In this document: in pieces, positions 9,910-46,220 of the stretch
Layout of the letters: every line of letters begins with the position of its first letter
How positions within the stretch are numbered: the stretch's first letter is position 1
Source: a virus
Strand: one strand, 5' to 3'
Length of the DNA: 64,000 nt
Virus record (IMG/VR): IMGVR_UViG_3300044683_000172
Coordinates: 1-64,000 of that record
Program-made: the position numbers and the translations under genes
Notes under the pieces: generated by a model
What the model was told of the DNA's origin: nothing
Seen by the model: only the letters and a program-made list of their open reading frames with translations
Database searches by the model: none

Positions 9910-11306
9910 AGATCGAAGAATCCTGCCGGGGCGCGCTTCGGCTTGATCAAGGACATGATTACGGCGTCGGCGATGTTTGGCGATTTGATTCCGCGCTTTT
10001 CTTTCATGTCCTTCTTCGATTCCACTTTGAACTTGCCCATCCCATCAATGTCCTTTCGGGGTGCGGCAAGTTCTTGGCACATCTTGTTGAGGGTCTTTTC
10101 GCCTACCATGGCGACAATCGCGTCTTTGTCGATTGAAACGAGTTCGTCAAATGGGTGATCGACACCCAAGACGACTGCTTCATAAGTCTTTCGGAACATC
10201 GATGCAACGCGATCCCACATCTGCGCCTTGATGTTCGAAAAGTGCTCTCTGTTGAGAATCTTGACGTGAGGCAATTCCATGTACACGCCGTCCGGCTCAA
10301 GAACGCTGCCGCCTGCGTTGAACGGGTTGTAGCTCAGAATGAATCCATCATTGTTCGAGTCATTCAACTCAGCAAACTTCGATCCAACGTGCGCTCCTAC
10401 GCCGATGGAGTCGAAGTTCACTTCTGCGCCATACACCTTTGCGGCATTGTAGACGCGCGTCGAAGATTTCAGAATTTCGTTCTCCAGCCCATCCCATTCT
10501 TCAACGTGATCGATGATGTTTCCGGTGCAACCGACCAAGGCATTCTTGTCGTCTCCGTCGTCTGCAACGTCGAAACCCATCACGCGCTTGCCTTCCTTTT
10601 TCCAGCCAAGCTTCTTGTGGGCGTCGATTGCGGCAAGTACATATTCAAGACTGATGACGCTCTTGTCGCCGCCAGTCTTTGGAATCCCTCCATAGACGTG
10701 TTCGGCGTTCTTCCGATCCTTGCGGTATGCGTCGGCAATGACCTTTAGCATCGTGTCGCTGAGGAATGGATTCAGTTGCCAATTGAACAGCCGCTGGATC
10801 GAGTCTTCCGGTGGATCAACAACGAAGTATTGATACACAAAGTCCATCATCTCATCTGGGTTCCAGATGATCCAAATCTGGGAGCCTTTCTTACGAATTG
10901 TCGGCTCGATGACGTTCCATTGGTCTTGTGTCAAGTAGTGAGCTTCTTCTAGCCAGAGGATATCGACGCCTTCAGTGGACTTGATTTCGCTCAGGTTACG
11001 AGCGATACCGTAGAACAGAAACGATGAGCCGGTGCGCTTGTTGACAATCGAGTTCTTCAGAATTTGGAAGTCATTGCGCCATGGGCTATCTTCGATCTTG
11101 TCTTTCAGAAGAGTGTACACCGATTCATCAATGCGGTTCTGGAACTGACGTGCGCAAAGAATCTTCAGTGTGAAGTTGGCCGCGAGATACACTGCAATGC
11201 CGGCAGCGTCGTGGGACTTGCCGGACGCACGTCCGCCATACAGGACTTTGTAGCGCTTGCGTGCGCGCCAGAAGTCCTTCAGATAAGGGTTGAGACGGTA
11301 AGCCAT
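9906..11306 (-). CDS. terL: terminase large subunit
   Basis: 466 aa. Walker A YGGRASGKSH near the N-terminus, WLEEAH Walker B-like motif and a C-terminal nuclease-type region. Resembles the PBSX-type terminase family. Confidence 0.92.
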   Translation of the reverse strand: MAYRLNPYLKDFWRARKRYKVLYGGRASGKSHDAAGIAVYLAANFTLKILCARQFQNRIDESVYTLLKDKIEDSPWRNDFQILKNSIVNKRTGSSFLFYGIARNLSEIKSTEGVDILWLEEAHYLTQDQWNVIEPTIRKKGSQIWIIWNPDEMMDFVYQYFVVDPPEDSIQRLFNWQLNPFLSDTMLKVIADAYRKDRKNAEHVYGGIPKTGGDKSVISLEYVLAAIDAHKKLGWKKEGKRVMGFDVADDGDDKNALVGCTGNIIDHVEEWDGLENEILKSSTRVYNAAKVYGAEVNFDSIGVGAHVGSKFAELNDSNNDGFILSYNPFNAGGSVLEPDGVYMELPHVKILNREHFSNIKAQMWDRVASMFRKTYEAVVLGVDHPFDELVSIDKDAIVAMVGEKTLNKMCQELAAPRKDIDGMGKFKVESKKDMKEKRGIKSPNIADAVIMSLIKPKRAPAGFFDL

Positions 11307-11511
11307 GCAGTGTCCTCAGATGTCATACGGCCACTATTGTATGGACTGAGGTTCACCAAAGATACGTCGCACGCAATCGAATATCAGAATTCCCGACCAA
11401 ATCATAGGGATATCACAAATATGTTGCCTGCTCGTCAGAAATGGAGCAATATTCACTCATGCGATGAACGTTGTCAATCAAACGGACTACGCAGAAGTTG
11501 AAGAAATTTCT

Positions 11512-11539
11512 TTGACTTGTTTGTTCGGTGCCCTATAAT
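11512..11539 (+). promoter_or_regulatory. sigma70-type promoter TTGACT-N16-TATAAT
   Basis: Near-consensus hexamers 50 nt upstream of the 11589 ATG. A CCGCTG-GGATG-CAGCGG hairpin follows immediately downstream. Confidence 0.6.
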
Positions 11540-11588
11540 CACTCTACCGCTGGGATGCAGCGGCAACCTAGAAAGACGAGAATTGATC

Positions 11589-12287
11589 ATGAAAACCATT
11601 GCTGATATCAAGGCTGCGACCACTTCGGAACTGGTTGCGTTCTGGAACGAGCACGCAGAATCTCAGATCAAGAAGTTTTCCGATCGAAAGACCGCCGAGG
11701 CCCGCTGCATCAAGCTTCTCGAAGGTCTGATTGCTACCGGCGACATCGACGCTGGCAGCGAAAAGAAGACGGAAGACGAAGACCTGAAGGCCGCTGCTGA
11801 ATCGGCGACGAAGGCCGCCAAGGCAGCTGAAGCAGCAGCCGAATCCGCCAAGGCAGCAGCGAAAACGGTCGAAACCGTGGTCAAGCACCACGAAGAAATC
11901 GAAAAGCGCGATGCGGTCGGCGCGTCCTGGCTCCGCGAAGCCGAGGCGGCCGCGAACGCCAAGAAAGCCCAAGGCGGAACGCCCAAGGAAGTGTCCGAAG
12001 CGGCGCAAAAGGCTTCCCTGGCCCATCGGTCGGCCTCGAACGCCGCTGGCGTAGCGGCCAGCTGGCACGATCCAGAAGTGCGGGCGGCCCGCCAAAAGCG
12101 CGACGGCGTTACGGTGGAGGTTGACGGAAAGAAGACTTCGCATAAGAGTACGCGAGACGCCTTCCGCCACTATCGCCTGCCGGACTCGAAGCACATTCGC
12201 TTCCGCATGCGCCTGAAGGAGTCGCGCTCGGAAGTCTTCGAGCACAACGGCAAGAAGTACAAATTCACGATGGGGTCGGACGAGTAA
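11589..12287 (+). CDS. hypothetical Ala/Lys/Glu-rich protein
   Basis: Internal ATG (MKTIADIKAAT...) of ORF 11517..12287, downstream of the strong promoter. Confidence 0.65.
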   Translation: MKTIADIKAATTSELVAFWNEHAESQIKKFSDRKTAEARCIKLLEGLIATGDIDAGSEKKTEDEDLKAAAESATKAAKAAEAAAESAKAAAKTVETVVKHHEEIEKRDAVGASWLREAEAAANAKKAQGGTPKEVSEAAQKASLAHRSASNAAGVAASWHDPEVRAARQKRDGVTVEVDGKKTSHKSTRDAFRHYRLPDSKHIRFRMRLKESRSEVFEHNGKKYKFTMGSDE

Positions 12288-12314
12288 GAACAAGAGCGGG
12301 GAGAAGTCGGCTTG

Positions 12315-12343
12315 TGGGCGGTCCGAGGGTCGCCCATCTTTTT
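12315..12343 (+). terminator. rho-independent terminator
   Basis: TGGGCG-N10-CGCCCA followed by TCTTTTT. Confidence 0.55.
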
Positions 12344-12364
12344 GAATTCAACCGGACACAAGAT

Positions 12365-12505
12365 ATGCCGAACAATCGAAAGTTTGACCGTCGCGCTGCC
12401 AATCGGGATCGCTTCGAAGATCGTGGCCGAAAGGCGAAGGCTTATTCGCGGACCGAACGCCGCGACTCGAAGCGTGCTGCTCGAAATTGGGCGCTGGAGG
12501 GTTGA
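12365..12505 (+). CDS. small basic hypothetical protein
   Basis: 46 aa (MPNNRKFDRRAANRDRFEDRGRKAK...). Its stop overlaps the next start. Confidence 0.4.
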   Translation: MPNNRKFDRRAANRDRFEDRGRKAKAYSRTERRDSKRAARNWALEG

Positions 12506-12507
12506 TC

Positions 12508-12807
12508 ATGAACTATATCAAGCGCCAGTTCTGGGAAGAAGTCCGTCAACTCGCCACATTCTTTGTTACGCAGTGGTTTGAGCCGACGGAACCGCCCGTG
12601 CACATCGGATGGTATGAGACGGTGGCCATTCTGGATGAGAGTCGCCCGGCTCCTGCCGATACAGACGATGGATATATGGCCTTCTGGGACGGCAACGAAT
12701 GGAAAATCTTCGACCGCCAGGAATGGTTTGACGGTGATCGTTGGCACAAGGCTCGAATCGTTACCGCAAGGCACCAAACGCGATACTGGCGAGGCCATCA
12801 CAAATGA
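12508..12807 (+). CDS. hypothetical protein
   Basis: ATG at 12508 with GGAGGG SD. Trp-rich (YMAFWDGNEWKIFDRQEWFDGDRWHK). Confidence 0.55.
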   Translation: MNYIKRQFWEEVRQLATFFVTQWFEPTEPPVHIGWYETVAILDESRPAPADTDDGYMAFWDGNEWKIFDRQEWFDGDRWHKARIVTARHQTRYWRGHHK

Positions 12808-13016
12808 TCGAAGACCTGCAATTCAGCATGTTTCTGAACGTCGTCGAAGACACGCTGAAGCGCAATCGTTGCAAGGCCGATTTGAACGCTCTTGAGATCG
12901 GCCTTGCTCGAAAGGCGTACGCCAATGGTGAACCCGCATATATTGCGGCTTCGGTTATCGTCTCATATCGCCTTCACGAATTCCGTAAGATGCCTACATC
13001 GCCAACCATTCACTAG
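12804..13016 (+). CDS. hypothetical protein
   Basis: ATGA overlap with the upstream stop. 70 aa. Confidence 0.5.
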   Translation: MIEDLQFSMFLNVVEDTLKRNRCKADLNALEIGLARKAYANGEPAYIAASVIVSYRLHEFRKMPTSPTIH

Positions 13017-13025
13017 GAGAACAAG

Positions 13026-13247
13026 ATGAATTTCATGCCAACCCAAATCACCATCGCCGTCCGCACGCTGTCTGGCCGGATGTACCCTCCCATCTTGGAC
13101 GGGATCGCGTGCGAGCCGATTCGCGTTGCTTGCCGTCACCTTCGTGATGAGCGCGCCATCGCCGACGGCGAATTCACCAGGCTGAAGAAGTCTTTGGTGC
13201 TGTTTGACGAAGCAGTCAAGCAAAAGAATAAGTCGAAGGTTCACTGA
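13026..13247 (+). CDS. hypothetical protein
   Basis: 73-aa ORF, GGAG SD. Confidence 0.5.
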   Translation: MNFMPTQITIAVRTLSGRMYPPILDGIACEPIRVACRHLRDERAIADGEFTRLKKSLVLFDEAVKQKNKSKVH

Positions 13248-13582
13248 TGTTCGACCATATCATCCACGAACATCCGGACGACCGCGCACGGAGAATCGCC
13301 GCGAGTCTGGCGAGCAATCCGATCTTCAACCGACTGAATGGAGCACAACGGCCCATGTCCGAACTTCTTCCTTTCCTGAAGGACGTCACGCGTGCAGAAA
13401 AGGCGAGCGCCCAGGCCGTCTCAGAGGCCGTCGAAAACCTGGACGCGGTCCTGTTCACCGGTGACCTGTTTTTCGATGCGGAGCGCGTGAGCCAGCTGGA
13501 GAATCTTCTGAACCGCTGGCGGAATCAGGCCGTCATCTGTCGCAGAATCGCCAGCGATATCGCGGCCGGAGACGGCCAATGA
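13247..13582 (+). CDS. hypothetical protein
   Basis: 111 aa. Start overlaps the upstream stop (TGATG). Confidence 0.55.
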   Translation: MFDHIIHEHPDDRARRIAASLASNPIFNRLNGAQRPMSELLPFLKDVTRAEKASAQAVSEAVENLDAVLFTGDLFFDAERVSQLENLLNRWRNQAVICRRIASDIAAGDGQ

Positions 13583-13914
13583 CCTTTTACTACACAGGAC
13601 GCGATCCTGTGGCAGACCTGCTCAAGATGTTCGAAGGGACGACGAAAGTTCAGGATGTCGTCGCCATCGGATGGCTGGATTTGACAGGTCGCCAGATCGG
13701 ATACGGCCGCGCTCAGCAGATTCTCAGTCTTCTGAACAAGAACATGGGCATCAACTCGTCCGGACCGATGGAAGCGACGGCAATCGACAGCCTACGGACC
13801 ATCGGGAACCAGATCGGCCACCAAAAGGCGCAGCGAATCCTGCAACTGCTGTGGGCGGACTATCTCAGAAAATGCGGCCATCCAATGGAAGGCGCGTTGA
13901 GTGGAGACCTTTGA
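13579..13914 (+). CDS. hypothetical protein with duplicated helix-hairpin-helix-like motif
   Basis: ATGA overlap. Internal duplication GRQIGYGRAQQILSLL / GNQIGHQKAQRILQLL. Confidence 0.55.
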   Translation: MTFYYTGRDPVADLLKMFEGTTKVQDVVAIGWLDLTGRQIGYGRAQQILSLLNKNMGINSSGPMEATAIDSLRTIGNQIGHQKAQRILQLLWADYLRKCGHPMEGALSGDL

Positions 13915-14016
13915 CACGTCCAACTCCTTCGCAAAATGATCATCCGCATCCTGGCAGCATCCGTTATCCTTGCTTTCTTCCTCTTTTGCTCGCCAATCTT
14001 GGCGTAAGGAGTCGTC

Positions 14017-14229
14017 TTGAAAATCTTTCTCAAGTTGGCGTTGATTCTCGCCATGGTGATGCTGATCTCCTTCATGTTGGGAGTCGTCTCGCCGATCCTT
14101 ATCAACTCCGATTCGTGGATCGGCATTGCCGTGCTGCCATTCGTGTGGTTGGCCGTAATCGGCGCCAACATCGTCGTGATCAAGCTTACTTTCTTCTCAA
14201 CCCTCCAACAACAAAAGGAGAACAAATGA
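14017..14229 (+). CDS. small integral membrane protein
   Basis: 70 aa, TTG start after a TAAGGAG SD. Two to three hydrophobic spans. Overlaps the SPFH gene start. Confidence 0.5.
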   Translation: MKIFLKLALILAMVMLISFMLGVVSPILINSDSWIGIAVLPFVWLAVIGANIVVIKLTFFSTLQQQKENK

Positions 14230-15050
14230 AACGATTCCGTTCGCTCATCCTCGCGGCCTTCATCGGCTGCATGTCGCTTCTCGCTGGCTGCGACAACGTT
14301 CCGGCAGGCCACGTCGGCATCCAGGTCTCGCGCTACGGCGGCGACCGAGGCGTCAACATCGACGTGAAACAGCCGGGCCGATATTTCAACGGCTGGAACG
14401 TGGACATGTTCCTGTTCCCCACGTTCACCCAATCGCATGTCTGGGACAAGGCCGGTTCCGATGAATCGTTCACGTTCCAAACGGTCGAAGGCCTGAGCGT
14501 CAACACCGATGTCGGGATCAGCTATACCATCGCGCCCGAGAATGCTGCGAAGGTCTTCCAGAAATATCGGCGAGGTGTCGATGAGATCACGGCCGTGTAC
14601 CTTCGTGCCATGGTCCGCGATACGCTCAACCTTGCCGGCGCCCGTATGGCAATCGAAGACGTGTACGGCAAGGGCAAAGCTGATCTTCAGAAGAGCGTGG
14701 AAGACGACGTGAAGAAGCAAGCCGCGAGCGTCGGCATCACGGTCGAATCCGTGTACTTCGTGAATGAGATGCGATTGCCGCCTTCCGTCGTGAACTCGAT
14801 CAACGCGAAGATCGCCGCGACGCAAGTTGCCCAGCAGAAGGAAAACGAGCTACGCGCAGCCGAGGCGGATGCGGCCAAGGCGATTGCCCAGGCCAAGGGC
14901 GAAGCCGAAGCGACACGAATCCGTGGCGAGGCGCTACGATCCAGCCCGCAGGCGCTCCAGCAGTTGGCAATCGAGCGCTGGGACGGCAAGTTGCCTCAGT
15001 ACATCGGCGCCGGTCAGCCGGTCCCGTTTGTCGGCGCGACGGTGAAGTGA
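14226..15050 (+). CDS. SPFH/band-7 (prohibitin-like) domain lipoprotein
   Basis: ATG at 14226 after AAAGGAG. Lipobox MKRFRSLILAAFIGCMSLLAGC. Body and coiled-coil tail fit the SPFH family. The upstream in-frame extension (13671-) is rejected. Confidence 0.8.
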   Translation: MKRFRSLILAAFIGCMSLLAGCDNVPAGHVGIQVSRYGGDRGVNIDVKQPGRYFNGWNVDMFLFPTFTQSHVWDKAGSDESFTFQTVEGLSVNTDVGISYTIAPENAAKVFQKYRRGVDEITAVYLRAMVRDTLNLAGARMAIEDVYGKGKADLQKSVEDDVKKQAASVGITVESVYFVNEMRLPPSVVNSINAKIAATQVAQQKENELRAAEADAAKAIAQAKGEAEATRIRGEALRSSPQALQQLAIERWDGKLPQYIGAGQPVPFVGATVK

Positions 15051-15277
15051 TGGCCAAGATGATGTTGGACGGCGAGCGCCGTGTGATCAAACGCATCGGA
15101 TGCGATATCGACCAGGGCGGCCTGTCCATGGATGTCGTGGCGATTCGGATTGACAGCGAAACTCCATATGTCGCTCTGAAGCACGGCAACCAGGAGTTCG
15201 TCTTCACCGACTCTGAGGCATCCGAACTCGCCGCGCGGATCAAGAAGGCTTTGGCGATCCTTCCATCCAGCAAATAG
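15050..15277 (+). CDS. hypothetical protein
   Basis: ATG at 15050 (GTG at 15047 also possible) overlapping the SPFH stop. 75 aa. Confidence 0.5.
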   Translation: MAKMMLDGERRVIKRIGCDIDQGGLSMDVVAIRIDSETPYVALKHGNQEFVFTDSEASELAARIKKALAILPSSK

Positions 15278-18782: not shown

Positions 18783-18785
18783 ACG

Positions 18786-18814
18786 TTGATTCGTTCATCT
18801 GCGCCAACTAAGAT
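18786..18814 (+). promoter_or_regulatory. candidate sigma70 promoter TTGATT-N17-TAAGAT for the non-coding unit
   Basis: Hexamers at 18786-18791 and 18809-18814, 4 nt after the upstream stop codon. Confidence 0.4.
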
Positions 18815-18820
18815 TCGTCC

Positions 18821-19605
18821 TGTGCTGCGTTGATACCGGAGTTTGCCGCGCGACGGCTTTGAAGGTGAACCAAACGGCACGGCGCTTGTAGACCGCTTAA
18901 AGTCTACAGCCATTTATGGGCGAGTCCTTTATTGGACATCACTTGGAGACATCTAAGTGCCCATAAATGGCGGTCCCGGAAAAACGTATAGTCTGCTGCG
19001 TAGGCGTGCGCTGGTGGACGGCAGTACGGCCGTACGGGATCGCCAACCAGTTCCCAGCGTGGAGCGAACGATAACAGACCGAAAGGCGTCTATGCGCTTC
19101 TGGCGCGGTCTCAAGTCTGGTGCGCTTCATAGGCGAGGGTAGCGATGGCAGGCCGCGAGATAGTCTCCCCGTTTGGCGTCTTACGCACTTTGTGAGTGGC
19201 GCCCTTCGGTGTTCGTCTTTGAGGCGCCTTGCAGTGGCGTAACCCATTCCTCAAGGATGAACACCGAAGTCCTGTACGTCTCAGTGGTAGAGCGCGGTGC
19301 GGTATCCAATCCGTGCTGTGTGTCGTCGGTTCGATTCCGATCATGGACTTCAGCAAGCATATTCCGCTCAATCCCAGAACATCGACGGCGTGCGAGCAGG
19401 TGGCCTAGTCAGCCGCCACAACTGTTTCTCGCGGAAGCGCGTCTAAGGGGTTTGAACTACCGGACGCGGCAGAGAATCGACATGGGAAACCGCCTGAACC
19501 TGTCGGACAAGCCGGTACGTCCCGAGTGGCCGCGGTGAACGGTCAAGCAGCCGGTGAACTCACCCGAAGCCCGCGACACGTTGTGAAACGCTCGCGGGCT
19601 TCGTC
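18821..19605 (+). ncRNA. candidate large (~0.8 kb) structured non-coding RNA, class unknown
   Basis: No credible ORF on either strand. 13-bp helix 18909-18921/18959-18971. 21-bp helix 19204-19224/19248-19268 with two G-U pairs valid only for plus-strand RNA. Further helices, an embedded tRNA-like module and a terminator at the 3' end. Confidence 0.45.
19266..19351 (+). ncRNA. tRNA-like element (non-canonical cloverleaf; possibly a degenerate tRNA)
   Basis: T arm GTCGG-TTCGATT-CCGAT, D loop AGTGGTA flanked by CTC/GAG. Acceptor-like stem GAAGTCCTG/CA(T)GGACTTC. 7-bp anticodon-like stem with 8-nt loop TATCCAAT. No encoded CCA. Confidence 0.5.
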
Positions 19606-19610
19606 ATTTC
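19566..19610 (+). terminator. rho-independent-like terminator closing the non-coding unit
   Basis: GAAGCCCGCGA (19566-19576) pairs with TCGCGGGCTTC (19592-19602), followed by GTCATTTC. Confidence 0.5.
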
Positions 19611-19854
19611 TACGCCAGAAACAATCCCATCGTGAGGCGAGCGTATCGACCAAGAAAATGGCGTTCAAATTCGCGTAATACCCATTACGTTAAATTGCCG
19701 TTCGCTTATCGCACGCCAGAATAGCCTCATTGTTTGAGGTTGCGAAACAATCTCTCATCTCACTTCGGCCCTCAACCATTTGGATGAGTTGCCAATGTGC
19801 ATCTCGTCAGGCATGATTGAGTCACCTAAACGAATCTCATACGGAGATACCGAA

Positions 19855-20370
19855 ATGCGCTACTTCAAGATCGACGGCCACTTCAACGTTGTTGCAATCG
19901 CCGAGTCGATGGACGAAGTCAAGGCCGATCTGGACAACGGCGGCCAATGGGCATTCAGCTGGCAAGGTCAGAAGATGGAGATTCGCAATCTGAAGCCGGA
20001 AGGTGGATGGATGTGCCGTAACGACATCGAATCTTGGGAAGAAGCCCAGGCCATCGCAAGTGCGGCAAACGCCTTCTGCGGATCGCCGGATGCCTGGATT
20101 GCCACCGACGCCGGTGAATGGGTCAGCCCGCGCTACGATGTGATCGAAGCGCCTAAAGTCGGTCAGTTCGTCTCGAAGGGCTTCAATGGCGATTACTACC
20201 CGCTGGGCACGATTACGAAGATCAGCCACGACTTCAAGCGCGTTACGGTCGAAAATGAGAACGGCACCAAATACGTCTTCTATCGCAAGAAGATGAGCGG
20301 TGTTTGGTTGCTGAATCGTATGTGGGGACTGGTATGCGGTAGCGTCAACGAGCGCAACCCGCATCTCTAA
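19855..20370 (+). CDS. hypothetical protein
   Basis: Internal ATG (MRYFKIDGHFNV...) with GGAGA SD, in ORF 19780..20370. Confidence 0.6.
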   Translation: MRYFKIDGHFNVVAIAESMDEVKADLDNGGQWAFSWQGQKMEIRNLKPEGGWMCRNDIESWEEAQAIASAANAFCGSPDAWIATDAGEWVSPRYDVIEAPKVGQFVSKGFNGDYYPLGTITKISHDFKRVTVENENGTKYVFYRKKMSGVWLLNRMWGLVCGSVNERNPHL

Positions 20371-20390
20371 TTTCTGACCGATTTAAACAA

Positions 20391-20430
20391 AACGCCCGGC
20401 TCCTGAGTGGAGTTCCGGGCGTTTTCAATT
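20391..20430 (+). terminator. rho-independent terminator (A-tract upstream, so possibly bidirectional)
   Basis: AACGCCCGG-N15-CCGGGCGTT followed by TTCAATTTC. Confidence 0.65.
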
Positions 20431-20448
20431 TCGGTGTTCTAGCCAATC

Positions 20449-20486
20449 AATAAGGCCGACCTAGGCAACGGGTCATCGGCCTTATT
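20449..20486. terminator. hairpin at the end of the convergent minus-strand gene
   Basis: AATAAGGCCGA-N16-TCGGCCTTATT. One arm overlaps the stop codon of 20482..21063. Confidence 0.4.
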
Positions 20487-21063
20487 TCTTTGTGTTCTTG
20501 GCACCATCGGACACATATTCGGGCGCGTCTTCGGTCGATTCCTCGTCGCCTTCCGCGATACCGGCAGCCTGCAACGCATCAGAACGGGCCGCTGCCGTCT
20601 CTTCGTCCATCTCAGGGATGGATTCATAGAATGCGTTGAGGTTCTTCACGGCACGTGTTTTTCCGTTCTCATCCACAAAAGTGATGTTAGCCAGAACATT
20701 CAACTCCTTGATAGCCGCGAGTTGAGTGGAGCACTTGACAAATGGATTGTGCACCATTTGCAGAAGCGAATTGATGGACTTCTTTTGGTTCCACAGCTTA
20801 TCCATCGGCATTTCTGCGAGTCGCTGTTGGAATGTGTTTTGGAACCACGGATTCTGCTCGATCTGCTCGGCGTACATCGAAACGTCTTCAGCACGGTAGC
20901 CAGGGCCAAATGCGCGTCGGAATGCGGTGTACGGCGTAAAGCCATCGATGCGATTCTTCACGTATGACTCATATTGAGGCAAGTTTGCGAGAGCCATACG
21001 CTCTTCAGCAAACATCCTCGGGTCATACGGATCGTGCTCGAATTCGCCTGTCGCTTTGCTCAT
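20482..21063 (-). CDS. possible terminase small subunit (otherwise hypothetical, acidic C-terminal tail)
   Basis: 193 aa. HTH-like FTPYTAFRRAFGPGYRAEDV, then a QLAAIKELNVLANI segment and an acidic tail, loosely like Terminase_2-type small subunits. Weak call. Confidence 0.35.
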   Translation of the reverse strand: MSKATGEFEHDPYDPRMFAEERMALANLPQYESYVKNRIDGFTPYTAFRRAFGPGYRAEDVSMYAEQIEQNPWFQNTFQQRLAEMPMDKLWNQKKSINSLLQMVHNPFVKCSTQLAAIKELNVLANITFVDENGKTRAVKNLNAFYESIPEMDEETAAARSDALQAAGIAEGDEESTEDAPEYVSDGAKNTKK

Positions 21064-21198
21064 GATTTTGGTGATGCCGCGTGTTCGGTTGATGCTCGCG
21101 ATTGTATGTGAACGTGTTCGTCAGAGATAGGAGGTGCTTTGGCTGTCTGTTTTGTGTTAGTTGGGATGCTGTGTACGTGCCGATTGTGGTAGTGCTTG

Positions 21199-21501
21199 GG
21201 TTTGCCGCCCGATAAATCAGAACCACTTGCCTTAATTGTCGGACGGTTTGCCGCGCCCAACTATTGGTCGTTCATTGCAACGCCGCGCGGGCATTGGGTT
21301 TGCCGCGAGTCTGTTTCTTCTTAGTTGTATTAATTGTAATAGTTGTATAAGAAAGAAATACGTATAGGCCCGTACATGTACGATCCCGTAAGAGTCTGAC
21401 GACCCACCCAATTATCCAACTTTCGCAACTATTGGACCTAAGTCCTTGATTCGAAAGAAGAAAGATAGTTGGGCGCGGCACAACTATTAGTTGCAACTAT
21501 C
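21199..21501. repeat. iteron cluster with AT-rich core (candidate origin of replication or pac/regulatory region)
   Basis: GGTTTGCCGC at 21199, 21245 and 21297. CAACTAT(T/C) in both orientations at 21258, 21338(-), 21426, 21464(-), 21481 and 21494. Palindromes CGTACATGTACG (21371) and TAGTTGCAACTA (21488). AT-rich 21313-21362. Confidence 0.6.
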
Positions 21502-21552
21502 TCGCGGCAAGTGTCCGCCACAACAATACATACCGCATCGCGAAACGCACAA

Positions 21553-21578
21553 CAACCAAGAAAAGCGCCCGAAGGCGC
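21553..21578 (-). terminator. rho-independent terminator after the helicase gene
   Basis: Minus strand reads GCGCC-TTCG-GGCGC followed by TTTTCTTGG, 10 nt after the stop at 21588. Confidence 0.7.
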
Positions 21579-21587
21579 ATTCTTCAC

Positions 21588-23348
21588 TCAAAACCCGCCA
21601 TTGGCAGACGATTTATCATCCTCAGCGGCTTCACCCTTGGCATCAGAATAATCACCTTCCTCATCAGCATCACCAATCTTGGACAAAATCCCCTTGTGCG
21701 GGTCTTCAAATTCCTCAACCGACGACCAATCATAAAAGCGATAAATCTTTCGAGCACCAGTGCCGATCACCGATTTCGCCCCCAAAGAAGCGAAGAAAGA
21801 ATCAACGTGGGACGGAATTGCATCTCGCTTTGATATGGCCAAAAGTCTTTGGTGGAACTCAACAGGCTTAATATCGACCGCAAACCGACCATGATTTTCC
21901 TTGCGGCCGCGCCACAAGTGCTTCTGGCACTTCAACAATGCCGTCACACCATAGGTCGCCAGCATCGAATCTTCCACCGCGCCAGACCCTCGATCCATCT
22001 CGTTCTGAGAGAATTTTTGCACCTCATTCGCCACCTGTCCGACCTCGTGATCGAACGCAGCAACGCCATTTTCCTCAATCCAACGAGCGGCCTCGGCCAA
22101 GCACAGCCACATGTACTCTTCGAAGCGACGATCTTGCGAAACAATCATCTCGCATTGATAAGGCGCTGGCTTCCAAGTTTTCTTGCCGTTCTTATCCGGC
22201 AACTGGCCGCAAAACACAGGATAAAAACGTCGGTTGCCCGTGTCATCTCGCTGAAGCCCCTCATACTTATTACCGTCCATCAAGATGATCCAACGCCGCA
22301 GCATCGTCTGCGATCCTTCGAACTTGAAATCAAAGGTATCTGACGAGTTGGTAACGAACGCCTTGACTCGATTCAAGTCGGCGCGCGTAAAGCCTGTCAT
22401 TTCTGGAATTGCCGCGACTACGCTATTGCCGGTGATCGTTCGAAGAAAGTCGATTCGCCCACCGCTCAGGTCCAGCGGCGTGGGAAACATCTTCTCGTCA
22501 CCCATAATCTCGCGCGTGATTCGAGTTCCGAAATGCGACTTCCCGCAGTTCTGGGCGCCAAATAACGACAAGACGATCCCAGCATTGTGGCCGCCATACA
22601 TCACACGCACGTAAAGCGATGTCCAAAAGTACCATCCCATTCGGCGATTCAGCGGCGTATCGAAGCACTCGAACAAATCCATCATGGACGTTTCGAGACG
22701 ATTCTTGCCGTCCCACTCCGGCAGCAACTTCGATAAACGCTCCTTCAATGGGTCGCGCCGAACGCTAAGCGCCCATTCAGCGAACGCATTTCGAACCGTC
22801 TCAGCGTTCTGTCCAAGCAAGTTCAATTCGCCCATCGCTTGGACTAAAGGCTCAATCGAATATTGCTTGTTGATTGTTTCGCCGTTCTCGTCGTTTCGAT
22901 AGCCGGTGAACTCATTATAGAAAGGTCGATGAGGCGAATCCTTATCCTCACCGAACAATAGCTCAAACGCTTTCCACCGATTGCGGTCGCTGGACATGTT
23001 TATCGTCGTCGGCTTTCCAGCGACGATCTTTTCGGTGTACTCTGGGAACTCGTTCAACCCGCTTTGTCGAATGGCTTTGGCGCGGGCAACCAAGTCCGGA
23101 ATCTCACGGATTTCAGCGAGACGACGTTTTGCTTCATCGCTGGAACGAGCCAACGTAATAACATTTAGCCGCGCTGCGTGTCGCGCTTTTTCTTCTCCGT
23201 CGGCGTCGGCGATTGAATCTGGCGCATCTGTCCAATCATCCGGCGAACTTCTTTCACCATCAGCCAGATCGCTTGGCTCCCAAGGCAGATCAGGAGTATC
23301 GTCACCAGGACTGTCAGGAATGTTGTCATTTTGCTTCTTCTTGGTCAT
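21588..23348 (-). CDS. VirE-family / SF3-type replicative helicase
   Basis: 586 aa. Walker A LFGAQNCGKSH, then DDTGNRRFYPV and PEWDGKNRLE motifs characteristic of virulence-associated protein E / D5-like helicases. Confidence 0.85.
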   Translation of the reverse strand: MTKKKQNDNIPDSPGDDTPDLPWEPSDLADGERSSPDDWTDAPDSIADADGEEKARHAARLNVITLARSSDEAKRRLAEIREIPDLVARAKAIRQSGLNEFPEYTEKIVAGKPTTINMSSDRNRWKAFELLFGEDKDSPHRPFYNEFTGYRNDENGETINKQYSIEPLVQAMGELNLLGQNAETVRNAFAEWALSVRRDPLKERLSKLLPEWDGKNRLETSMMDLFECFDTPLNRRMGWYFWTSLYVRVMYGGHNAGIVLSLFGAQNCGKSHFGTRITREIMGDEKMFPTPLDLSGGRIDFLRTITGNSVVAAIPEMTGFTRADLNRVKAFVTNSSDTFDFKFEGSQTMLRRWIILMDGNKYEGLQRDDTGNRRFYPVFCGQLPDKNGKKTWKPAPYQCEMIVSQDRRFEEYMWLCLAEAARWIEENGVAAFDHEVGQVANEVQKFSQNEMDRGSGAVEDSMLATYGVTALLKCQKHLWRGRKENHGRFAVDIKPVEFHQRLLAISKRDAIPSHVDSFFASLGAKSVIGTGARKIYRFYDWSSVEEFEDPHKGILSKIGDADEEGDYSDAKGEAAEDDKSSANGGF

Positions 23349-23375
23349 TGCGATACCTGCTAAGTGATTCGATTA

Positions 23376-23879
23376 TCAAACTTTCGACATGAAGGCGACG
23401 TATTCCACCACCTCATTGGTCAGTTGATCGAAATCACGGAGCAGATGCCCTTTACTGCCAGCGCCCGATTCCAAGACGCTCCGGCGTTGGGCTGCGGCTT
23501 CTCGGTAGAGTTCCGCTTCAATCTTCTCGCGGAAGTACTGAGGATGGGCGCGAAGGATTCCTACTGTGCAAAGATAAGTCAAGCAAGCGAGCGCGACCAT
23601 TGCCTTGAGTTCCTTCGGAAGCTTCACTTTGGGCATCGCGACGCCATTCAGGCCCGTTCCCATGTCGCCCGATCCGTCGAACAGGATGCACACCAGCAAC
23701 TTCGCTCGATATTCATCGGCGAATTCGATGGTGATGTGTGAGATGTTGACGCCGGAATTCCTGCCGACGTGCACGCGTATGGATCCTGCGATTTTGTCCG
23801 GATCGAATGAGAAATTCGGATCGAGATCAGCGCCTGTGGCGATGCGGAATAGTTGGCCATACAATACAGCTGCATTCAT
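23376..23879 (-). CDS. hypothetical protein
   Basis: 167-aa ORF between the primase and helicase genes. Confidence 0.6.
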   Translation of the reverse strand: MNAAVLYGQLFRIATGADLDPNFSFDPDKIAGSIRVHVGRNSGVNISHITIEFADEYRAKLLVCILFDGSGDMGTGLNGVAMPKVKLPKELKAMVALACLTYLCTVGILRAHPQYFREKIEAELYREAAAQRRSVLESGAGSKGHLLRDFDQLTNEVVEYVAFMSKV

Positions 23880-23903
23880 TGCTTATTCTCCTTGTGAGAA
23901 TGG

Positions 23904-25007
23904 TTATGGTTTGATGAATGGCGGAACGCCGCGTGATGCGTAAAACTCATTGATCTTTTTCAAGTCATCCTCCACGACTGGCAAGACAATCTCGTCCACG
24001 AAGTGGCCCCAAGTCTTCTTGTTGGTCTTCCGGTGGACATCGTGCGCGCAGCCGAAGACGAATTCGATTTCTGCGCCAGGGATGGGACCTCGGAAGTAAG
24101 CGCCGCTCGGATCGCCGTTTCCGTGCTCGTGACCCCAGGGACAAATGATGCGGACCTTCCCAGAACCGTTCTCGCGCACTTCGCCGCCGTTCTCGCCCAT
24201 AGATGCACCAGACAGAATCTTCACCGCCATGTTGTATTGAACTTTCTCGGCGATGTACGAATCCTCGTCGATTGCTCGTTGGACGATGGGCGGAACTGTG
24301 AACGAAAATCCGAACGCGCGGCAGATGCGGTCGATGCTGTAGCGTCGTTCGTAGTCGTGGTCCCGCAACGTAACGCTCCAGGGCTTTCCTGTGTGTTCGT
24401 CCGGGTACTTCAGCGCCGCGCCCGGCTCCGACGATACGCGCTTATTGTTGAAGCCGATGGGCATGCGGCCGAAGCGGCTCACGTCCTTAATCGTGTTGTC
24501 GCCGCCCGCTTTCAGGACGCTGTTGACGAAGGCTTGTAAGAAGTATTTGAACCGGCGCATATCGGGCTCGGGCGCATCGAGAAAGTACCAAGCCTGATAG
24601 TTGCGCGGCGAAGTCTCCACGACTGCGGTGGGAACCAATCTTTCATAGAGCCATCGAAGGCTGAGGCCGCCTTTGGAGCCTTTGCCGTCTCCGATGTCGT
24701 CCACCATGAGCGCCATGCCGTGGCCGAAGGACGATTCGCCGCGCCAGTAGCGCATGACGCCGGATTTGGGGTGAGGGGTTTTAATGCTGGATGAGATGCA
24801 AACGTATGCGTTCGCATTCACATTGATGTACTTGCCGGGCTTGTAGGGTACGGGCCACCATCCGGCGTGCTTAACTTGGCCATTTTCGTCGCGTTGCAGC
24901 GTTGCTTCTTCTGCGTAACCGACCATGACCCGTTCATCTTCTGGAATTCCTCTTTGCAATTGAGTCAGGAATTCCTCTGCGATGTTATATCGCTCTTTCG
25001 GTGTCAT
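23904..25007 (-). CDS. DNA primase, archaeo-eukaryotic primase superfamily (RepB'-like) with C-terminal zinc-binding region
   Basis: MALMVDDIGDG (acidic motif), VVETSPRNYQAWYFL (RepB'-type motif), then CPWGHEHGNGDPSGAYF...FGCAHDVH. Lies upstream of the VirE helicase. Confidence 0.6.
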   Translation of the reverse strand: MTPKERYNIAEEFLTQLQRGIPEDERVMVGYAEEATLQRDENGQVKHAGWWPVPYKPGKYINVNANAYVCISSSIKTPHPKSGVMRYWRGESSFGHGMALMVDDIGDGKGSKGGLSLRWLYERLVPTAVVETSPRNYQAWYFLDAPEPDMRRFKYFLQAFVNSVLKAGGDNTIKDVSRFGRMPIGFNNKRVSSEPGAALKYPDEHTGKPWSVTLRDHDYERRYSIDRICRAFGFSFTVPPIVQRAIDEDSYIAEKVQYNMAVKILSGASMGENGGEVRENGSGKVRIICPWGHEHGNGDPSGAYFRGPIPGAEIEFVFGCAHDVHRKTNKKTWGHFVDEIVLPVVEDDLKKINEFYASRGVPPFIKP

Positions 25008-26872: not shown

Positions 26873-27010
26873 ATGATCAAAAGAAATGGCACATCGATCA
26901 TCTTTGCTTTCTTCGCGCTGATGTCGATCTTTGGTGGTGAAAAGGGCGCTGCGCTCGCATTCTTCTTCTTTTGCGGATTGACTTTGGATTTGAAGAGAGG
27001 GTGTGAGTGA
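26873..27010 (+). CDS. small membrane protein (45 aa)
   Basis: ATG at 26873 after GGAG. MIKRNGTSIIFAFFALMSIFGGEKGAALAFFFFCGL. Confidence 0.4.
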   Translation: MIKRNGTSIIFAFFALMSIFGGEKGAALAFFFFCGLTLDLKRGCE

Positions 27011-27852
27011 AACGAGAAGAGAATGAAATGTTGGACCAAATCAAATTCACTTCCGAGCACGAATTGCCTGTGCAATCCCTAAAGAGATCAGGGATTTACC
27101 GCATCGTATCGCCAAGCGGAAATTTCTATGTAGGAAGTGCTGTTGAAATTCGAAAACGATGGCGCAATCACAAGCGTCAACTTATCTCTGGCGTTCACCA
27201 CAACAAACCGCTGCAAGCTGCTGCCAAAAAGTACGGTTTGGAAAGCCTGCGATTCGAGATCATCGAGCACTGCGATTCTGATGTGCTCATTAACAGGGAA
27301 CAGTTTTACATCGACGCGCTGCGCCCTAAGTACAACACGTGTTTGGTGGCCGGAAGCCCACGCGGCGTGAAGCGTTCCGAAGAGACGAAGGCGAAGGTGC
27401 GCGCCGCGAATGTCGGCAGGAAGCACTCCGAAGAGACGAAGGCAAAACTGAGTGCCGCGAAGATCGGTAAGAGGCTTTCTGAGGACCACAAAGCGAAGTT
27501 GAGCGCGGCACGAATCGGCAAGATCGGCAAGAAGCATTCCGAAGAGACAAAGGCGAAGATGAGTGCGGCACACACCGGTAAGAAGTTTTCTGAGGAGCAC
27601 AAGGCGAAGATGAGCGCCGCGAATATCGGCAAGAAGCATTCCGAAGAGGCAAAGGCAAAAATGAGCGCGACACGAACCGGTAAGAGGCTTTCTGAGGAGC
27701 ACAAGGCAAATATGAGCGCCGCGCTTACCGGCAGGAAGCTTTCTGAGGAGCACAAGGCGAAGCTGCGCGCAGCGCGTCTGGCCTATTTGTCAAGGCGCAA
27801 CGGCGAGATTGGCACTTCGCTCGGATTTTCTTTCCCTGCTGATTCACTTTGA
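27007..27852 (+). CDS. free-standing GIY-YIG homing endonuclease with eight NUMOD3 repeats
   Basis: GIYRIVSPSGNFYVGSAVEIRKRWRNH (GIY-YIG), then 8 tandem SEE(T/H)KAK(L/M)SAAxxGKK units. GTG at 27007 or ATG at 27028. Confidence 0.9.
   Translation: MKREENEMLDQIKFTSEHELPVQSLKRSGIYRIVSPSGNFYVGSAVEIRKRWRNHKRQLISGVHHNKPLQAAAKKYGLESLRFEIIEHCDSDVLINREQFYIDALRPKYNTCLVAGSPRGVKRSEETKAKVRAANVGRKHSEETKAKLSAAKIGKRLSEDHKAKLSAARIGKIGKKHSEETKAKMSAAHTGKKFSEEHKAKMSAANIGKKHSEEAKAKMSATRTGKRLSEEHKANMSAALTGRKLSEEHKAKLRAARLAYLSRRNGEIGTSLGFSFPADSL
27376..27792 (+). repeat. 51-nt tandem coding repeats (NUMOD3 units)
   Basis: Eight 17-aa units (one of 20 aa) inside the endonuclease gene. These generate the spurious antisense ORFs 27088..27755. 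Confidence 0.85.
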
Positions 27853-27891: not shown

Positions 27892-29040
27892 ATGACCGAC
27901 ATCCATTTCGAGCAATTCAACCCCCAACAAAAACGTGCCGTGGAATTGGCCGTCAGTTGGTACAAAGGCTGGGCTGACCGCAGCCATCGCAAGCAAATCT
28001 TTCGCCTCGGCGGTTATGCGGGCACTGGCAAAACGACCGTCGCACGAGTGATCGCTGAGTTGTGCGGCGGACAGCGCAAGGTCGTGTTCATTGCGCCGAC
28101 CGGAAAGGCCGCGAGTCGCCTGCGCCAAAAGGGTTGTGCCTACGCAAAGACCATGCACAGTTTCATCTACAACGTGCGCGGCGAAGACGAAGAAGGCGAA
28201 CCCATATTCAGCGCAAAAGGCGCGTTGGATGAGCGCCCGGTGCTTGTGATCATGGACGAGGCATCGATGGTCGGCGAGTATGACCGAAAGAACTTGCTGA
28301 TGCACGGCATCCCAATCCTGGAAATCGGCGACCCTGGCCAAATTCCACCGGTGAAAGACAAGCAAGTATTCACGCTCGATTCGCTGGACTTCGTTCTGGA
28401 AGACATCGAGCGCAACGCCGGCAATATCGTCAAGGCATCCATGTTTATTCGCCAAGGCAAGCGCCTTCCTGTCCGCGAGTATGACGATGCGCGCGTTCGC
28501 GAAGGGAAGCCGGACGATGCGACGATGCGCGAACATCTGGGCGAGGATGCCGTAATTCTGTGCGCATTCAACTCCAGCCGCGAGTGGATGAACGAACGGG
28601 CGCGACGACTGCTTGGCTTCTCCGGAGACATCCCGCAAGTTGGCGAGAAGGTTGTATGCACCTTCAACCAGCACGGCTATGGCTGGATGAACGGAGAACA
28701 GGGAATCATCATCAATTACTATGACATTCCTGACGAAGAGAAGGACGACGAAAACGAAGACTGCATGTTTGCAACGATCAAGTCCCTGACGGACGGAAAA
28801 GAGCGTCGCATCATGTTTAATCCGCTTTCGTTCTCGCCGGACGGCGAACAGAAGAAAGCCGCACAGCGCTCGATTGGCGGCGTGGACTACGGCTACTGCC
28901 TCACTGTCCACAAGTCGCAGGGGAGTGAGTGGCCGCGCGTGATGATTATCGAAGAAACATTGCGCGGTGTCCCATACGAGCAAATGATGTATACTGCTGT
29001 GACGCGCGCCATCGACCAATTCACGCTGTACCGACAATAG
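27892..29040 (+). CDS. RecD/Dda-like SF1 DNA helicase
   Basis: GGYAGTGKTT Walker A, VIMDEASMV, IGDPGQIPPV, and YGYCLTVHKSQGSEW at the C-terminus. Confidence 0.9.
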   Translation: MTDIHFEQFNPQQKRAVELAVSWYKGWADRSHRKQIFRLGGYAGTGKTTVARVIAELCGGQRKVVFIAPTGKAASRLRQKGCAYAKTMHSFIYNVRGEDEEGEPIFSAKGALDERPVLVIMDEASMVGEYDRKNLLMHGIPILEIGDPGQIPPVKDKQVFTLDSLDFVLEDIERNAGNIVKASMFIRQGKRLPVREYDDARVREGKPDDATMREHLGEDAVILCAFNSSREWMNERARRLLGFSGDIPQVGEKVVCTFNQHGYGWMNGEQGIIINYYDIPDEEKDDENEDCMFATIKSLTDGKERRIMFNPLSFSPDGEQKKAAQRSIGGVDYGYCLTVHKSQGSEWPRVMIIEETLRGVPYEQMMYTAVTRAIDQFTLYRQ

Positions 29041-29088
29041 TGAATGTTTTAAAGTTCCGATAGGACACTGATTTAAAGTGTACTTTAA

Positions 29089-29142
29089 AGGAAGCGGAGC
29101 CCATATGAAATTTATTTGGGAGTCGCTTCCTTTTTCGTTTTT
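29089..29142 (+). terminator. rho-independent terminator
   Basis: AGGAAGCG...CGCTTCCT stem followed by TTTTTCGTTTTT. Confidence 0.6.
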
Positions 29143-29210
29143 CTGGAGGCATAATAACTACACCTCAGCGGAAACGCTTAATTCGATCTAACCAAATTTC
29201 GGAGAACATT

Positions 29211-29975
29211 ATGTCGCAAAACGAAGAACAAGCCAAGGCAGCACGGGACGAAGCAAAGGCCGCCAAGAAGGCCCAGCGCGAAGCCGAGAAGCAGCGCAAG
29301 GCCGAGGAAAAGGCCGCGAAGGACGCCGAGAAGCAAGCGCAGCGCGAAGCCGAACTGAAGAAGAAGGAAGAAGAGCGCGCCGCCAAGGCTGCCGAAAAGC
29401 AGGCCGAACGCGAAGCGAAGAACCGCGAAATGGCCGAGAAGCGCGAACAGGAAAAGGCCGCCAAGGCTGCTGAACGCGAAGCCGCGAAGGCCGAGGCCGC
29501 TGCGAAGAAGGAAGCCGACAAGGCCGCGAAGAAGGAAGCGCGCGAAGCCGAGAAGGCTGCTGCGAAGGCCCAGAAGGAAGCCGACAAGGAAGCGAAGAAG
29601 GCTGCCCGTCTGGCCGAAATCGAAGAGCGCAAGCAGGCTCGCAAGGCGGAAGCCAAGGCGCGTGCCGAGGCTGTGGCGGCCCGCAAGGCCGAAACCAAGG
29701 GCGACGGTCGGCGCGCGAAGGCAACGCACATCGTGTACAACGGCCATGGCCTGAGCAACCCGCAAGCAATGTCGGTGCGCGGCAATGTGCTGGCGAAGAT
29801 CAAGGAAAACTGCCCGGTCGGCGAACAAGTCAGCATCGAGCAAGTGGCCGCGTTCTGCAAGCCCGTTCTGTACGGCGCGAACGTTCGAAGCTTCCTGGCC
29901 AAACTCGAAGAGATGGGCCATCTGGATTTCGTGACCGTGTCCAGCGAGCCGGCTGCGGAACCTGAAGCCGCGTGA
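29211..29975 (+). CDS. Lys/Ala/Glu-rich coiled-coil protein with globular C-terminal domain
   Basis: About 160 aa of AKKAQREAEKQRKAEEKAAK-type low complexity, then about 90 aa of ordinary sequence (HIVYNGHGLSNPQAMSVRGNVLAKIKENCP...). Confidence 0.7.
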   Translation: MSQNEEQAKAARDEAKAAKKAQREAEKQRKAEEKAAKDAEKQAQREAELKKKEEERAAKAAEKQAEREAKNREMAEKREQEKAAKAAEREAAKAEAAAKKEADKAAKKEAREAEKAAAKAQKEADKEAKKAARLAEIEERKQARKAEAKARAEAVAARKAETKGDGRRAKATHIVYNGHGLSNPQAMSVRGNVLAKIKENCPVGEQVSIEQVAAFCKPVLYGANVRSFLAKLEEMGHLDFVTVSSEPAAEPEAA

Positions 29976-30034
29976 CGCTCTCTAAGTAACTCCCCCACTC
30001 ACTGGTTACACCCACGGCCAGTGATTTTGTGCAG

Positions 30035-45668: not shown

Positions 45669-45836
45669 TCGCCGTTTTCGTGGGCCGAAAGTCGCGGCCA
45701 GACGGTCGCGACGACCTAAACTTTCGCCTTATTTTGTGTACGTTCGGGAGCCAATTTTAAGTCAGAATCGAGTAGTAACGTTCATTTGTATCATATATGC
45801 TTTAATCATCACAGAAAGATTAGAAAGGATCAAAAC

Positions 45837-46220
45837 ATGGACCATACTATCACGCTCAACCGAAACGGCGCAACAAGGACGATTCCGGTTGGCTTCAGCT
45901 GGACAACGCTTTTCTTTGCCATCGCGCCTTCGATCATCCGCAATCACTGGTCGTTCGTTTGGTATTGGTGCTTTGCGAACTTTCTGTCCATTCTTGCGGT
46001 CTTAGCCTGTGTCAATCTCGCTGAGGCGTATCCGGAAGCCGCGAGCAACTTCAGCATTCTCAGCGTCTTCGCCCTGTTCTTCGGGCACGTTTGGTGCGCC
46101 GTCTACCGAAACGAAATGCTGCTGAAGCACCTGATCAAGGATGGCTGGCAACTCGGATTCATTCAGCCGGTTAAAGTGAAGGCGGCTGTAGAGCTAAACG
46201 GCGAATCGGCCAATCAATAA
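45837..46220 (+). CDS. multi-pass membrane protein (DUF2628-like; holin candidate)
   Basis: ATG after an AGAAAGGATCAAAAC leader. Hydrophobic spans FSWTTLFFAIAP..., FVWYWCFANFLSILAVLACV, ILSVFALFFGHVWCAV. Confidence 0.55.
   Translation: MDHTITLNRNGATRTIPVGFSWTTLFFAIAPSIIRNHWSFVWYWCFANFLSILAVLACVNLAEAYPEAASNFSILSVFALFFGHVWCAVYRNEMLLKHLIKDGWQLGFIQPVKVKAAVELNGESANQ

Follow-up and report, generated by a model that had tools for sequence, protein, structure and literature searches.

A conserved non-coding interval between a VapE-family helicase gene and an E217-type small terminase gene as a probable packaging-start region and possible replication origin in distant relatives of PB1-like and BcepF1-like myoviruses

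Several described packaging and replication elements resemble the locus analysed here. The SPP1 packaging site pacL-pacC-pacR lies upstream of gene 1 and extends into it, the hexamer repeats of P1 pac flank a site for the integration host factor (IHF), lambda cosB comprises R sites together with I1, and IHF sites are used at both lambda cos and P1 pac. The IncQ plasmid origin (oriV of RSF1010) carries direct iterons of ~20-22 bp which are bound by RepC, and the associated primase is RepB'. The locus in question is a non-coding gap of 524 nt (positions 21064-21587) separating two minus-strand genes, one for a VapE-family helicase and one for a small terminase (terS), in a 64,000-nt stretch of viral DNA (positions 1 to 64,000 of IMG/VR record IMGVR_UViG_3300044683_000172, here called the window) that represents most of a 68.9-kb metagenomic phage contig. 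In the origins of Staphylococcus aureus pathogenicity islands (SaPI), 6-12 short iterons lie directly 3' of rep around a central AT-rich region, with at least two iterons on each side in opposite orientation, and are bound by the winged-helix C-terminal domain (CTD) of Rep (PMC9371898). For the Pbunavirus phage JG024, 161 nanopore reads exceeded 30 kb in length; 36 of them begin at position 59,376 +/-5, where a pac site was suggested by the authors (PMC10913387).

We consider it reasonably probable that the gap is a conserved packaging-start region (pac or terminus) combined with the terS promoter, and that it is probably also an origin. The experimental evidence for a packaging start comes from virion DNA ends mapped in four cultured relatives of the window phage; the synteny and anatomy described below, the small terminase homologue encoded downstream, the conserved IHF-like site and the conserved promoter block also speak for it. 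Position 59,376 of JG024 (Ipoutcha et al., 2024) lies in the syntenic VapE-terS interval, 369 nt past the VapE stop codon and 601 nt ahead of the terS ATG, and nucleotide 1 of the Ab27 record (Essoh et al., 2015) is the same nucleotide. For the Myosmarvirus phages MTx and MyoSmar, PhageTerm predicted terminal repeats of 3.56 kb (PMC6588376, PMC6753285), one boundary of which lies 368 nt (MTx) or 376 nt (MyoSmar) past the VapE stop codon. All four ends were found 20-50 nt on the VapE side of an AT-rich core. The MTx end abuts a small hairpin, TAGTGTGCGTACACTA, containing CGTACAC, and the palindrome CGTACATGTACG occupies the equivalent place in the window. By analogy, a packaged-DNA end of the window phage is predicted at ~21385-21425, with packaging toward terS, and the packaging start is likely to lie in the gap. 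The initial annotation had named a pac site or an array bound by the small terminase as one of three possibilities; it is the only one of the three with experimental backing, from the fixed virion ends in the four relatives, and binding of the repeats by TerS is putative. Some assemblies also break at the interval: contig L004 stops 35 nt after VapE and contigs L029 and L031 begin within the interval, whereas the two contigs of the window phage read through it. Such breaks are compatible with a coverage step or a physical end, as weak, anecdotal evidence.

The elements of the gap and its flanks, from the helicase toward the terminase gene, were as follows; G motif stands for GCGGC(A/G) and T motif for CAACTAT and its counterparts in other lineages.

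21588..23348, minus strand: VapE-family superfamily 3 (SF3) helicase, 586 aa (Pfam VapE-like domain, E 1.9e-25; phmmer to 7PDS, E 1.8e-9)
21555..21578, minus strand: intrinsic terminator-like hairpin GCGCCTTCGGGCGC (hairpin 21565-21578) with T-run, ending the primase-VapE operon; equivalents follow the upstream gene in L028 and BCSR52
21453..21510, no strand: VapE-side repeat arm with inverted G motifs TTGCCGC (21504-21510) and TGCCGCG (21474-21480), four T motifs (ATAGTTG/CAACTA) at 21465-21500 including the palindrome TAGTTGCAACTA, and the polypyrimidine run CTTTCTTCTTTC
21438..21450, minus strand: IHF-consensus site ATCAAGGACTTAG (consensus match)
21371..21432, no strand: spacer between converging T motifs, holding GCGAAAG and the palindrome CGTACATGTACG (21371-21382)
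21313..21362, no strand: AT-rich core, 39/50 A+T; contains two CAACTA motifs as well as the polypurine run AAGAAGAAA
21199..21310, no strand: terS-side repeat arm with three direct G motifs CGCGGCAAACC (plus strand: GGTTTGCCGC) and one T motif (21258-21264)
21064..21123, minus strand: terS promoter-like block and 5' untranslated region (UTR), with TGACGAACAC (21114-21123), TACAAT (21101-21106) and the G motif GCGGCA (21075-21080)
20482..21063, minus strand: small terminase of E217 type, 193 aa (phmmer to 7UXE_A, E 5.3e-30; phrog_4783)
~20440-20482, both strands: bidirectional terminator after terS

According to this arrangement the gap would be a conserved region acting in cis in DNA processing, with three parts. 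The first would be the terminator of the primase-helicase operon. The second would be a nucleoprotein assembly site of ~320 nt, in which two short-repeat families are placed in dyad symmetry round the IHF-like site, the small palindrome and the AT core. The third would comprise the terS promoter and leader. Most likely, genome packaging would start at the assembly site, with the first terminase cut or fixed end at ~21385-21425, close to the AT core on its helicase-proximal flank. From there it would proceed toward terS, in the direction of descending window coordinates. The assembly site would probably also load the VapE helicase, as suggested by the SaPI-type layout and by the invariant gene with a VapE-type CTD in front of it.

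All motifs which the initial annotation had listed for this gap between same-strand genes were recovered in place. The sequence GGTTTGCCGC occurred exactly at 21199, 21245 and 21297 (spacing 46 and 52), with no further exact copy in the 64 kb. Six copies of CAACTAT, in both orientations (21258+, 21339-, 21426+, 21465-, 21481+ and 21494+), were counted in the gap against ~0.02 expected per 524 nt; the whole window contained 15 against 2.6 expected, a number reached in 0 of 100 shuffles. Both perfect palindromes, CGTACATGTACG at 21371-21382 and TAGTTGCAACTA at 21488-21499, were present, and the AT-rich block at 21313-21362 proved to be the most AT-rich 50 nt of the window, where the only other block with at least 36/50 A+T was at 45753-45839. 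When all 400-nt windows were ranked by repeated 7-mers, the gap came third after two coding tandem repeats and first in non-coding DNA; it was the sole AT-rich, iteron-bearing non-coding region of the 64 kb. In total the array held two inverted G motifs on the VapE side, three direct G motifs in the terS-side arm with more GCGGC(A/G) copies nearer terS, and 9-10 T motifs in both orientations. The outermost G motif of the terS-side arm sits in a block (21180-21213, GGCGGCAAACCCAAGCNCTACCACAA) conserved with L009.

The initial annotation had not listed the inverted G motifs of the VapE-side arm, the IHF-consensus site, the terminator hairpin or a long inverted repeat which connects the two arms. 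A perfect 16-nt inverted repeat, TGCCGCGCCCAACTAT, was found at 21249-21264 and 21465-21480, and the gap folded much better as a single strand than its shuffles (z = -4.3) because of the long-range dyad formed by this repeat. The folding gave no discrete hairpin of the ssiA/ssiB type. The IHF-consensus site was the sole exact copy of ATCAAGGACTTAG in the window.

A fourth copy of one motif, at 18841-18850, had been taken in the initial annotation as a hint of a shared DNA-binding regulator. This was unsupported. The 8-mer TTGCCGCG occurred 12 times in the window against 6.5 expected (at least 12 in 3 of 100 shuffles) and showed no evident tie to gene starts that would mark the G motif as a general phage promoter element; given these numbers the lone copy is unremarkable and looks like chance.

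The identities proposed for the flanking genes were confirmed and made more precise. The minus-strand operon encodes a RepB-type primase (PF16793; 23904-25007), a 167-aa protein and the VapE helicase (21588-23348), followed by the terminator-like hairpin, the gap, the 193-aa gene (20482-21063) and the bidirectional terminator. The helicase was assigned to VapE/SaPI Rep-like proteins by Pfam, phmmer and fold. Its AlphaFold2 model (pLDDT 84) had as top PDB matches six chains of SaPI1 Rep with double-stranded DNA (7PDS; E 4e-16 to about 1e-15 over ~490 columns, CTD included), followed by NrS-1, SaPI5 PriRep and SF3 helicases of poxvirus and African swine fever virus. The model suggests that VapE is a candidate self-loading replication initiator with a winged-helix-like CTD, and the Pbunavirus orthologue has already been named a candidate replication initiator by the authors of the Banzai study (PMC12390725). 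The possible small terminase downstream proved homologous to that of Pseudomonas phage E217 (7UXE). The gap therefore lies between the gene for a Rep-like candidate initiator and terS. The large terminase gene (terL) was located at 9906-11306 on the minus strand, 10 kb from terS, and the terS gene of E217 is known to lie far from terL (PMC9611059).

The window phage is a distant relative of PB1-like and BcepF1-like myoviruses, with VapE 36-39% identical to that of Bcepfunavirus, Pbunavirus, Carpasinavirus and Myosmarvirus. Positions 19500-24000 had no Megablast match in the phage collection, scans of viral contigs with VapE or TerS as single queries were empty, and an exact search of metagenome and viral collections for the conserved 26-mer GGCGGCAAACCCAAGCNCTACCACAA returned no copy; searches for protein homologues and a scan based on alignments were the only routes that led to relatives. 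The order VapE, non-coding interval of 0.5-1 kb, E217-type terS was found in Bcepfunavirus, Pbunavirus (R12, BrSP1, JG024, Ab27), Myosmarvirus (MTx, MyoSmar) and six metagenomic lineages; members include BcepF1, BCSR52, an integrase-bearing element (L009/L041) and the metagenomic L016, L025 and L034. Conservation in related phages, which the initial annotation had named as a check, was observed for the anatomy: the terminator, short-repeat arm, AT core, second arm and terS promoter-like block recurred in 14 lineages. The AT core had 36-44/50 A+T in all 14, often with a polypurine/polypyrimidine run and tandem lineage-specific repeats.

The G motif was nearly universal, whereas the T motif was lineage-specific: CAACTAT in the window, TAACTA(T/A) in L028, BcepF1 and BCSR52, AAGTTA in L009, TAATTTGG in Pbunavirus and GTACTTAAG/CGTACTAAA in Pluto. 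In 11 lineages, the copies of GCGGC(A/G) were divided by the AT core according to orientation: of the direct copies 41 lay toward terS and 2 toward VapE, of the inverted copies 0 and 12 (Fisher p = 2e-10 for the direct/inverted split); inverted copies were absent in 4 of the 11. The IHF 13-mer ATCAAGGACTTAG was identical in MATE2 and had one or two mismatches in L034, Carpasina, BcepF1, L025 and L028, and the strict IHF consensus matched 8 times in 10.1 kb of intervals versus 0.31 expected, a ~26-fold enrichment. The promoter-like block TA(C/T)AATCGCG was also conserved. In MTx it forms part of a consensus TTGACT-17-TATAAT promoter, and TACAATCGCGAGCAT of the window aligns with TATAATCGCGAGCAT of that promoter and with blocks of L028, BcepF1, BCSR52 and JG024.

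Three observations concern the relatives themselves. BcepF1 encodes a so far unannotated E217-type small terminase homologue of 179 aa, 34% identical to the window protein, at L001 7251-7790 (+), corresponding to about 19986-20525 (-) of NC_009015.1, where the record has three short opposite-strand open reading frames (ORFs), BcepF1.059-.061. In L041 (Ga0137937_1000254, 16.2 kb; 10001-15249) the VapE/interval/terS module lies by a tyrosine integrase at the contig end, with a 762-aa SLT-domain protein upstream; the distribution of the module thus extends to an element that seems to be temperate or integrative. Finally, ORFs are annotated over the mapped end and AT core in JG024 (59205-59786, PJG24_078), R12 (L011 5276-5857), MyoSmar (gp007) and MTx (gp103). 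No ORF of the gap was conserved in relatives, the one interval ORF tested (that of R12) had no Pfam match, and the ORFs annotated within Pbunavirus and Myosmarvirus intervals may be annotation artefacts.

The explanation which survives best beside a packaging start is a SaPI-type origin, with which it is compatible, as an origin does not exclude packaging. VapE hexamers would bind the short repeats through their winged-helix CTD, load on both sides in opposite orientation and melt the AT core, on the SaPI pattern without ATP, and the RepB-like primase would prime synthesis. We give origin function here odds just short of even. Like the rep-ori elements of SaPI and other phage-inducible chromosomal islands (exemplified by Rep1 of SaPI1, 7PDS), the locus combines an SF3 self-loading helicase with a winged-helix CTD, a cis site directly 3' of its gene and a primase gene upstream. 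The gap agrees with each structural feature of SaPI origins, namely 6-12 short (5-8 nt) repeats, an AT-rich centre and opposite orientation on each side; its array begins at most 80 nt from the VapE stop at 21588, and SaPI1 Rep is the closest structural match to VapE. The origin put forward in the initial annotation is supported by analogy with the SaPI layout and by synteny. Unlike SaPI, the window phage is a virulent-type myovirus of 65-70 kb and no satellite; its gap has two motif families rather than one, in a longer array (~320 nt) that also includes a palindrome and an IHF-like site. The gene directly after the gap is terS, and virion DNA ends map in the homologous array of relatives; Rep binding and origin activity are putative here.

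The linkage of the interval also argues for an origin. A gene ending in a VapE-type CTD directly precedes the interval in 14 of 14 lineages, whereas terS adjoins it in 12 of 14. In the exceptions, Pluto and Carpasinavirus (MATE2, Carpasina), the interval with AT core and repeats stays directly behind VapE, and terS lies 3.3 kb (Pluto) or 2.4 kb (Carpasinavirus) away, past eight small genes, with an upstream gap of its own of just 141-224 nt. The contigs L006 and L028, which come from different assemblies and overlap at 100% identity (L006 4001-5554 and 9269-9554; L028 1-270 and 2047-2916), constitute one phage genome in which nothing but a terminator and promoter comes after full-length VapE. 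Its interval lies 8 kb downstream beside terS, directly behind the gene for a 289-aa protein that has a VapE-CTD paralogue as its C-terminal ~160 residues. The N-terminal half of this protein had no recognisable homologue; the protein may be a stand-alone origin-binding protein or a remnant. Given the arrangements in Pluto, Carpasinavirus and L006+L028, the VapE-type-CTD gene is the only invariant neighbour of the interval.

In L009 the VapE CTD is swapped (20% identity versus 60-66% over the rest of the protein), and there a different T motif accompanies an unaltered G block, as a pairing of T motif and CTD would predict. Such covariation is not demonstrated, because the window and Bcepfunavirus have (C/T)AACTA in common though their CTDs are 22-26% and their TerS proteins 30-34% identical; the L009 swap alone fits covariation of the T motif with VapE-CTD or TerS identity. 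Other observations also count against an origin. No relative has a mapped origin, and the cumulative GC-skew minima of Pbunavirus lie at 42.3 and 52.4 kb, not at the interval (PMC12390725), in coordinates inferred to be JG024-like (VapE is gene 077 in both). Orientation-corrected skew regression detected no sign of replication at any point of the window: wherever the origin was placed, adding a replication term reduced the residual sum of squares from 147.4 to no less than 145.1. Gene orientation dominates the GC skew and the ORF strand calls are noisy in this GC-rich genome, so that skew is uninformative. The mapped DNA ends in the interval require a packaging explanation regardless. We regard an origin and a packaging start together in the gap as possible, at about one chance in three, and an origin here with pac elsewhere as improbable.

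Returning to the packaging start, the gap resembles headful pac regions and lambda cosB in lying beside the small terminase gene (terS starts at 21063) and overlapping its promoter region, in the short repeats that flank the cut, in the site for a host bending protein and in the single fixed end in a fraction of molecules (22% of long JG024 reads). Its motifs and its TerS fold, that of the E217 decamer, bear no relation to those of SPP1, P1 and lambda. The JG024 and Ab27 interval agrees with the gap in its inverted G motif, AT core with tandem lineage-specific repeats, direct CGCGGCA copies, TACAATCGCG and terS. It differs in its length of 969 nt in JG024, its annotated ORF and the lineage-specific repeat TAATTTGG in place of CAACTAT, and the JG024 and Ab27 papers reported the coordinate alone, without the repeat architecture.

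Several points weigh against a packaging start in the gap. The mapped ends stem from other phages, with whose VapE and TerS the window proteins share just 36-39% identity. No PhageTerm peak was obtained for the Pbunavirus phage Banzai (PMC12390725), and Pbunavirus termini are disputed, an older report having given other ends. In vitro, E217 TerS did not bind DNA to an appreciable extent (PMC9611059), a property common among pac-type TerS proteins. Myosmarvirus ends were reported as a 3.56-kb direct terminal repeat and not as pac, unlike the permuted ends of headful phages. The interval is moreover separable from terS by 2.4-3.3 kb, and its position behind VapE in Pluto and Carpasinavirus would fit a helicase-linked element better than a terS-linked one.

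A coupled origin and packaging element, in which VapE opens the AT core and the terminase's first-headful end arises at the opened site, was also considered and appears unlikely, though somewhat less so than an origin with pac elsewhere. In Myosmarvirus the corresponding event would be the duplication of the terminal repeat. If coupling were true, packaging specificity would come from the origin complex and not from sequence-specific TerS binding, and this would explain why terS lies beside rep, why the array stays with the gene for the helicase CTD when terS is relocated and why E217-type TerS shows no specific DNA binding. Such an element would be unusual for a tailed phage.

Transcriptional control as the sole function has a slim chance. 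The terminator would end the replication operon, and the repeats would be operators for a phage regulator or for TerS that time terS expression. The gap is indeed bounded by a terminator and a conserved promoter-like block, and one G motif lies in the terS 5' UTR in most lineages and beside TATAAT upstream of the relocated Pluto terS. The repeat arms and AT core, however, lie 130-450 nt upstream of the promoter block and stay behind VapE when terS is 2.4-3.3 kb off, fixed DNA ends fall inside the array in four relatives, and the strict inversion of the G motif about the AT core is atypical of operators. The operator set proposed in the initial annotation for the terS promoter holds for the last ~110 nt of the gap, with the conserved promoter-like block and the 5' UTR motif, and not for the rest. 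That a terS promoter lies in the gap is very probable from the conserved block. No recognisable Shine-Dalgarno sequence precedes the terS ATG at 21063; terS likewise lacks one in L028, BCSR52 and JG024, with GCGGC(A/G) in the 5' UTR. The missing Shine-Dalgarno sequence together with the G motif hints at unusual translation initiation or autoregulation of terS.

An IncQ-type oriV was ruled out: the RepB-type primase in the same operon, the repeats with GC-rich and AT-rich segments and the inverted elements on both strands are shared, whereas the gap motifs are 7-8 nt long, the repeats (7-11 nt) stand in both orientations and no RepC-like protein was found in the operon. A functionless or decaying spacer, for example a recombination scar between modules, is hardly credible: module boundaries of phages often gather non-coding DNA and nucleotide identity of the interval between lineages is low, but the motif enrichment is far above shuffles, the 16-nt inverted repeat is perfect, and the spacer reading is effectively refuted by the conservation of architecture and motif orientation across 11-14 lineages with flanking proteins only 30-60% identical.

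In therapy against Pseudomonas and Burkholderia, PB1-like and BcepF1-like myoviruses belong to the phages most widely employed, and their ends, pac and origin are at best disputed. The present comparison reconciles JG024 position 59,376, Ab27 nucleotide 1 and the Myosmarvirus repeat boundary as one place; the conserved architecture and the convergence of terminus coordinates do not appear in the literature examined. A defined, conserved 320-nt element with named motifs makes the pac and origin questions open to mutagenesis, and is of practical use for the prediction of transduction risk, for the choice of safe insertion sites in engineered phages and for the consistent re-opening of database records.

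A few other observations were made in the window. No Rfam family was found in the whole window at the gathering score, nor in 20300-21800 at E <= 1, and no tRNAs were found in the window. An apparently non-coding region of ~390 nt (18783-19170) lies between plus-strand genes and was linked in the initial annotation to a predicted non-coding RNA promoter; it had no similarity to the MTx terminal-repeat boundary and matched no Rfam family. A second terminal-repeat boundary ~3.5 kb downstream of the gap, such as MTx has, found no recognisable counterpart near 17.8-18.9 kb of the window. A GIY-YIG homing endonuclease with five NUMOD3 repeats (Pfam) is encoded at 27007-27852 on the plus strand; owing to its coding tandem repeats the locus ranks among the top two of the window in repeat density. 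The highest density per 400 nt was measured at 29100-29500, which has a strong AT skew (+0.385 over 29001-30000) and where long ORFs without Pfam match overlap on both strands; this is probably a low-complexity coding repeat. The AT-rich block at 45753-45839 (37/50 A+T) is situated just upstream of the ATG of the ORF 45786-46220, as might be expected of a leader or promoter, which it resembles.

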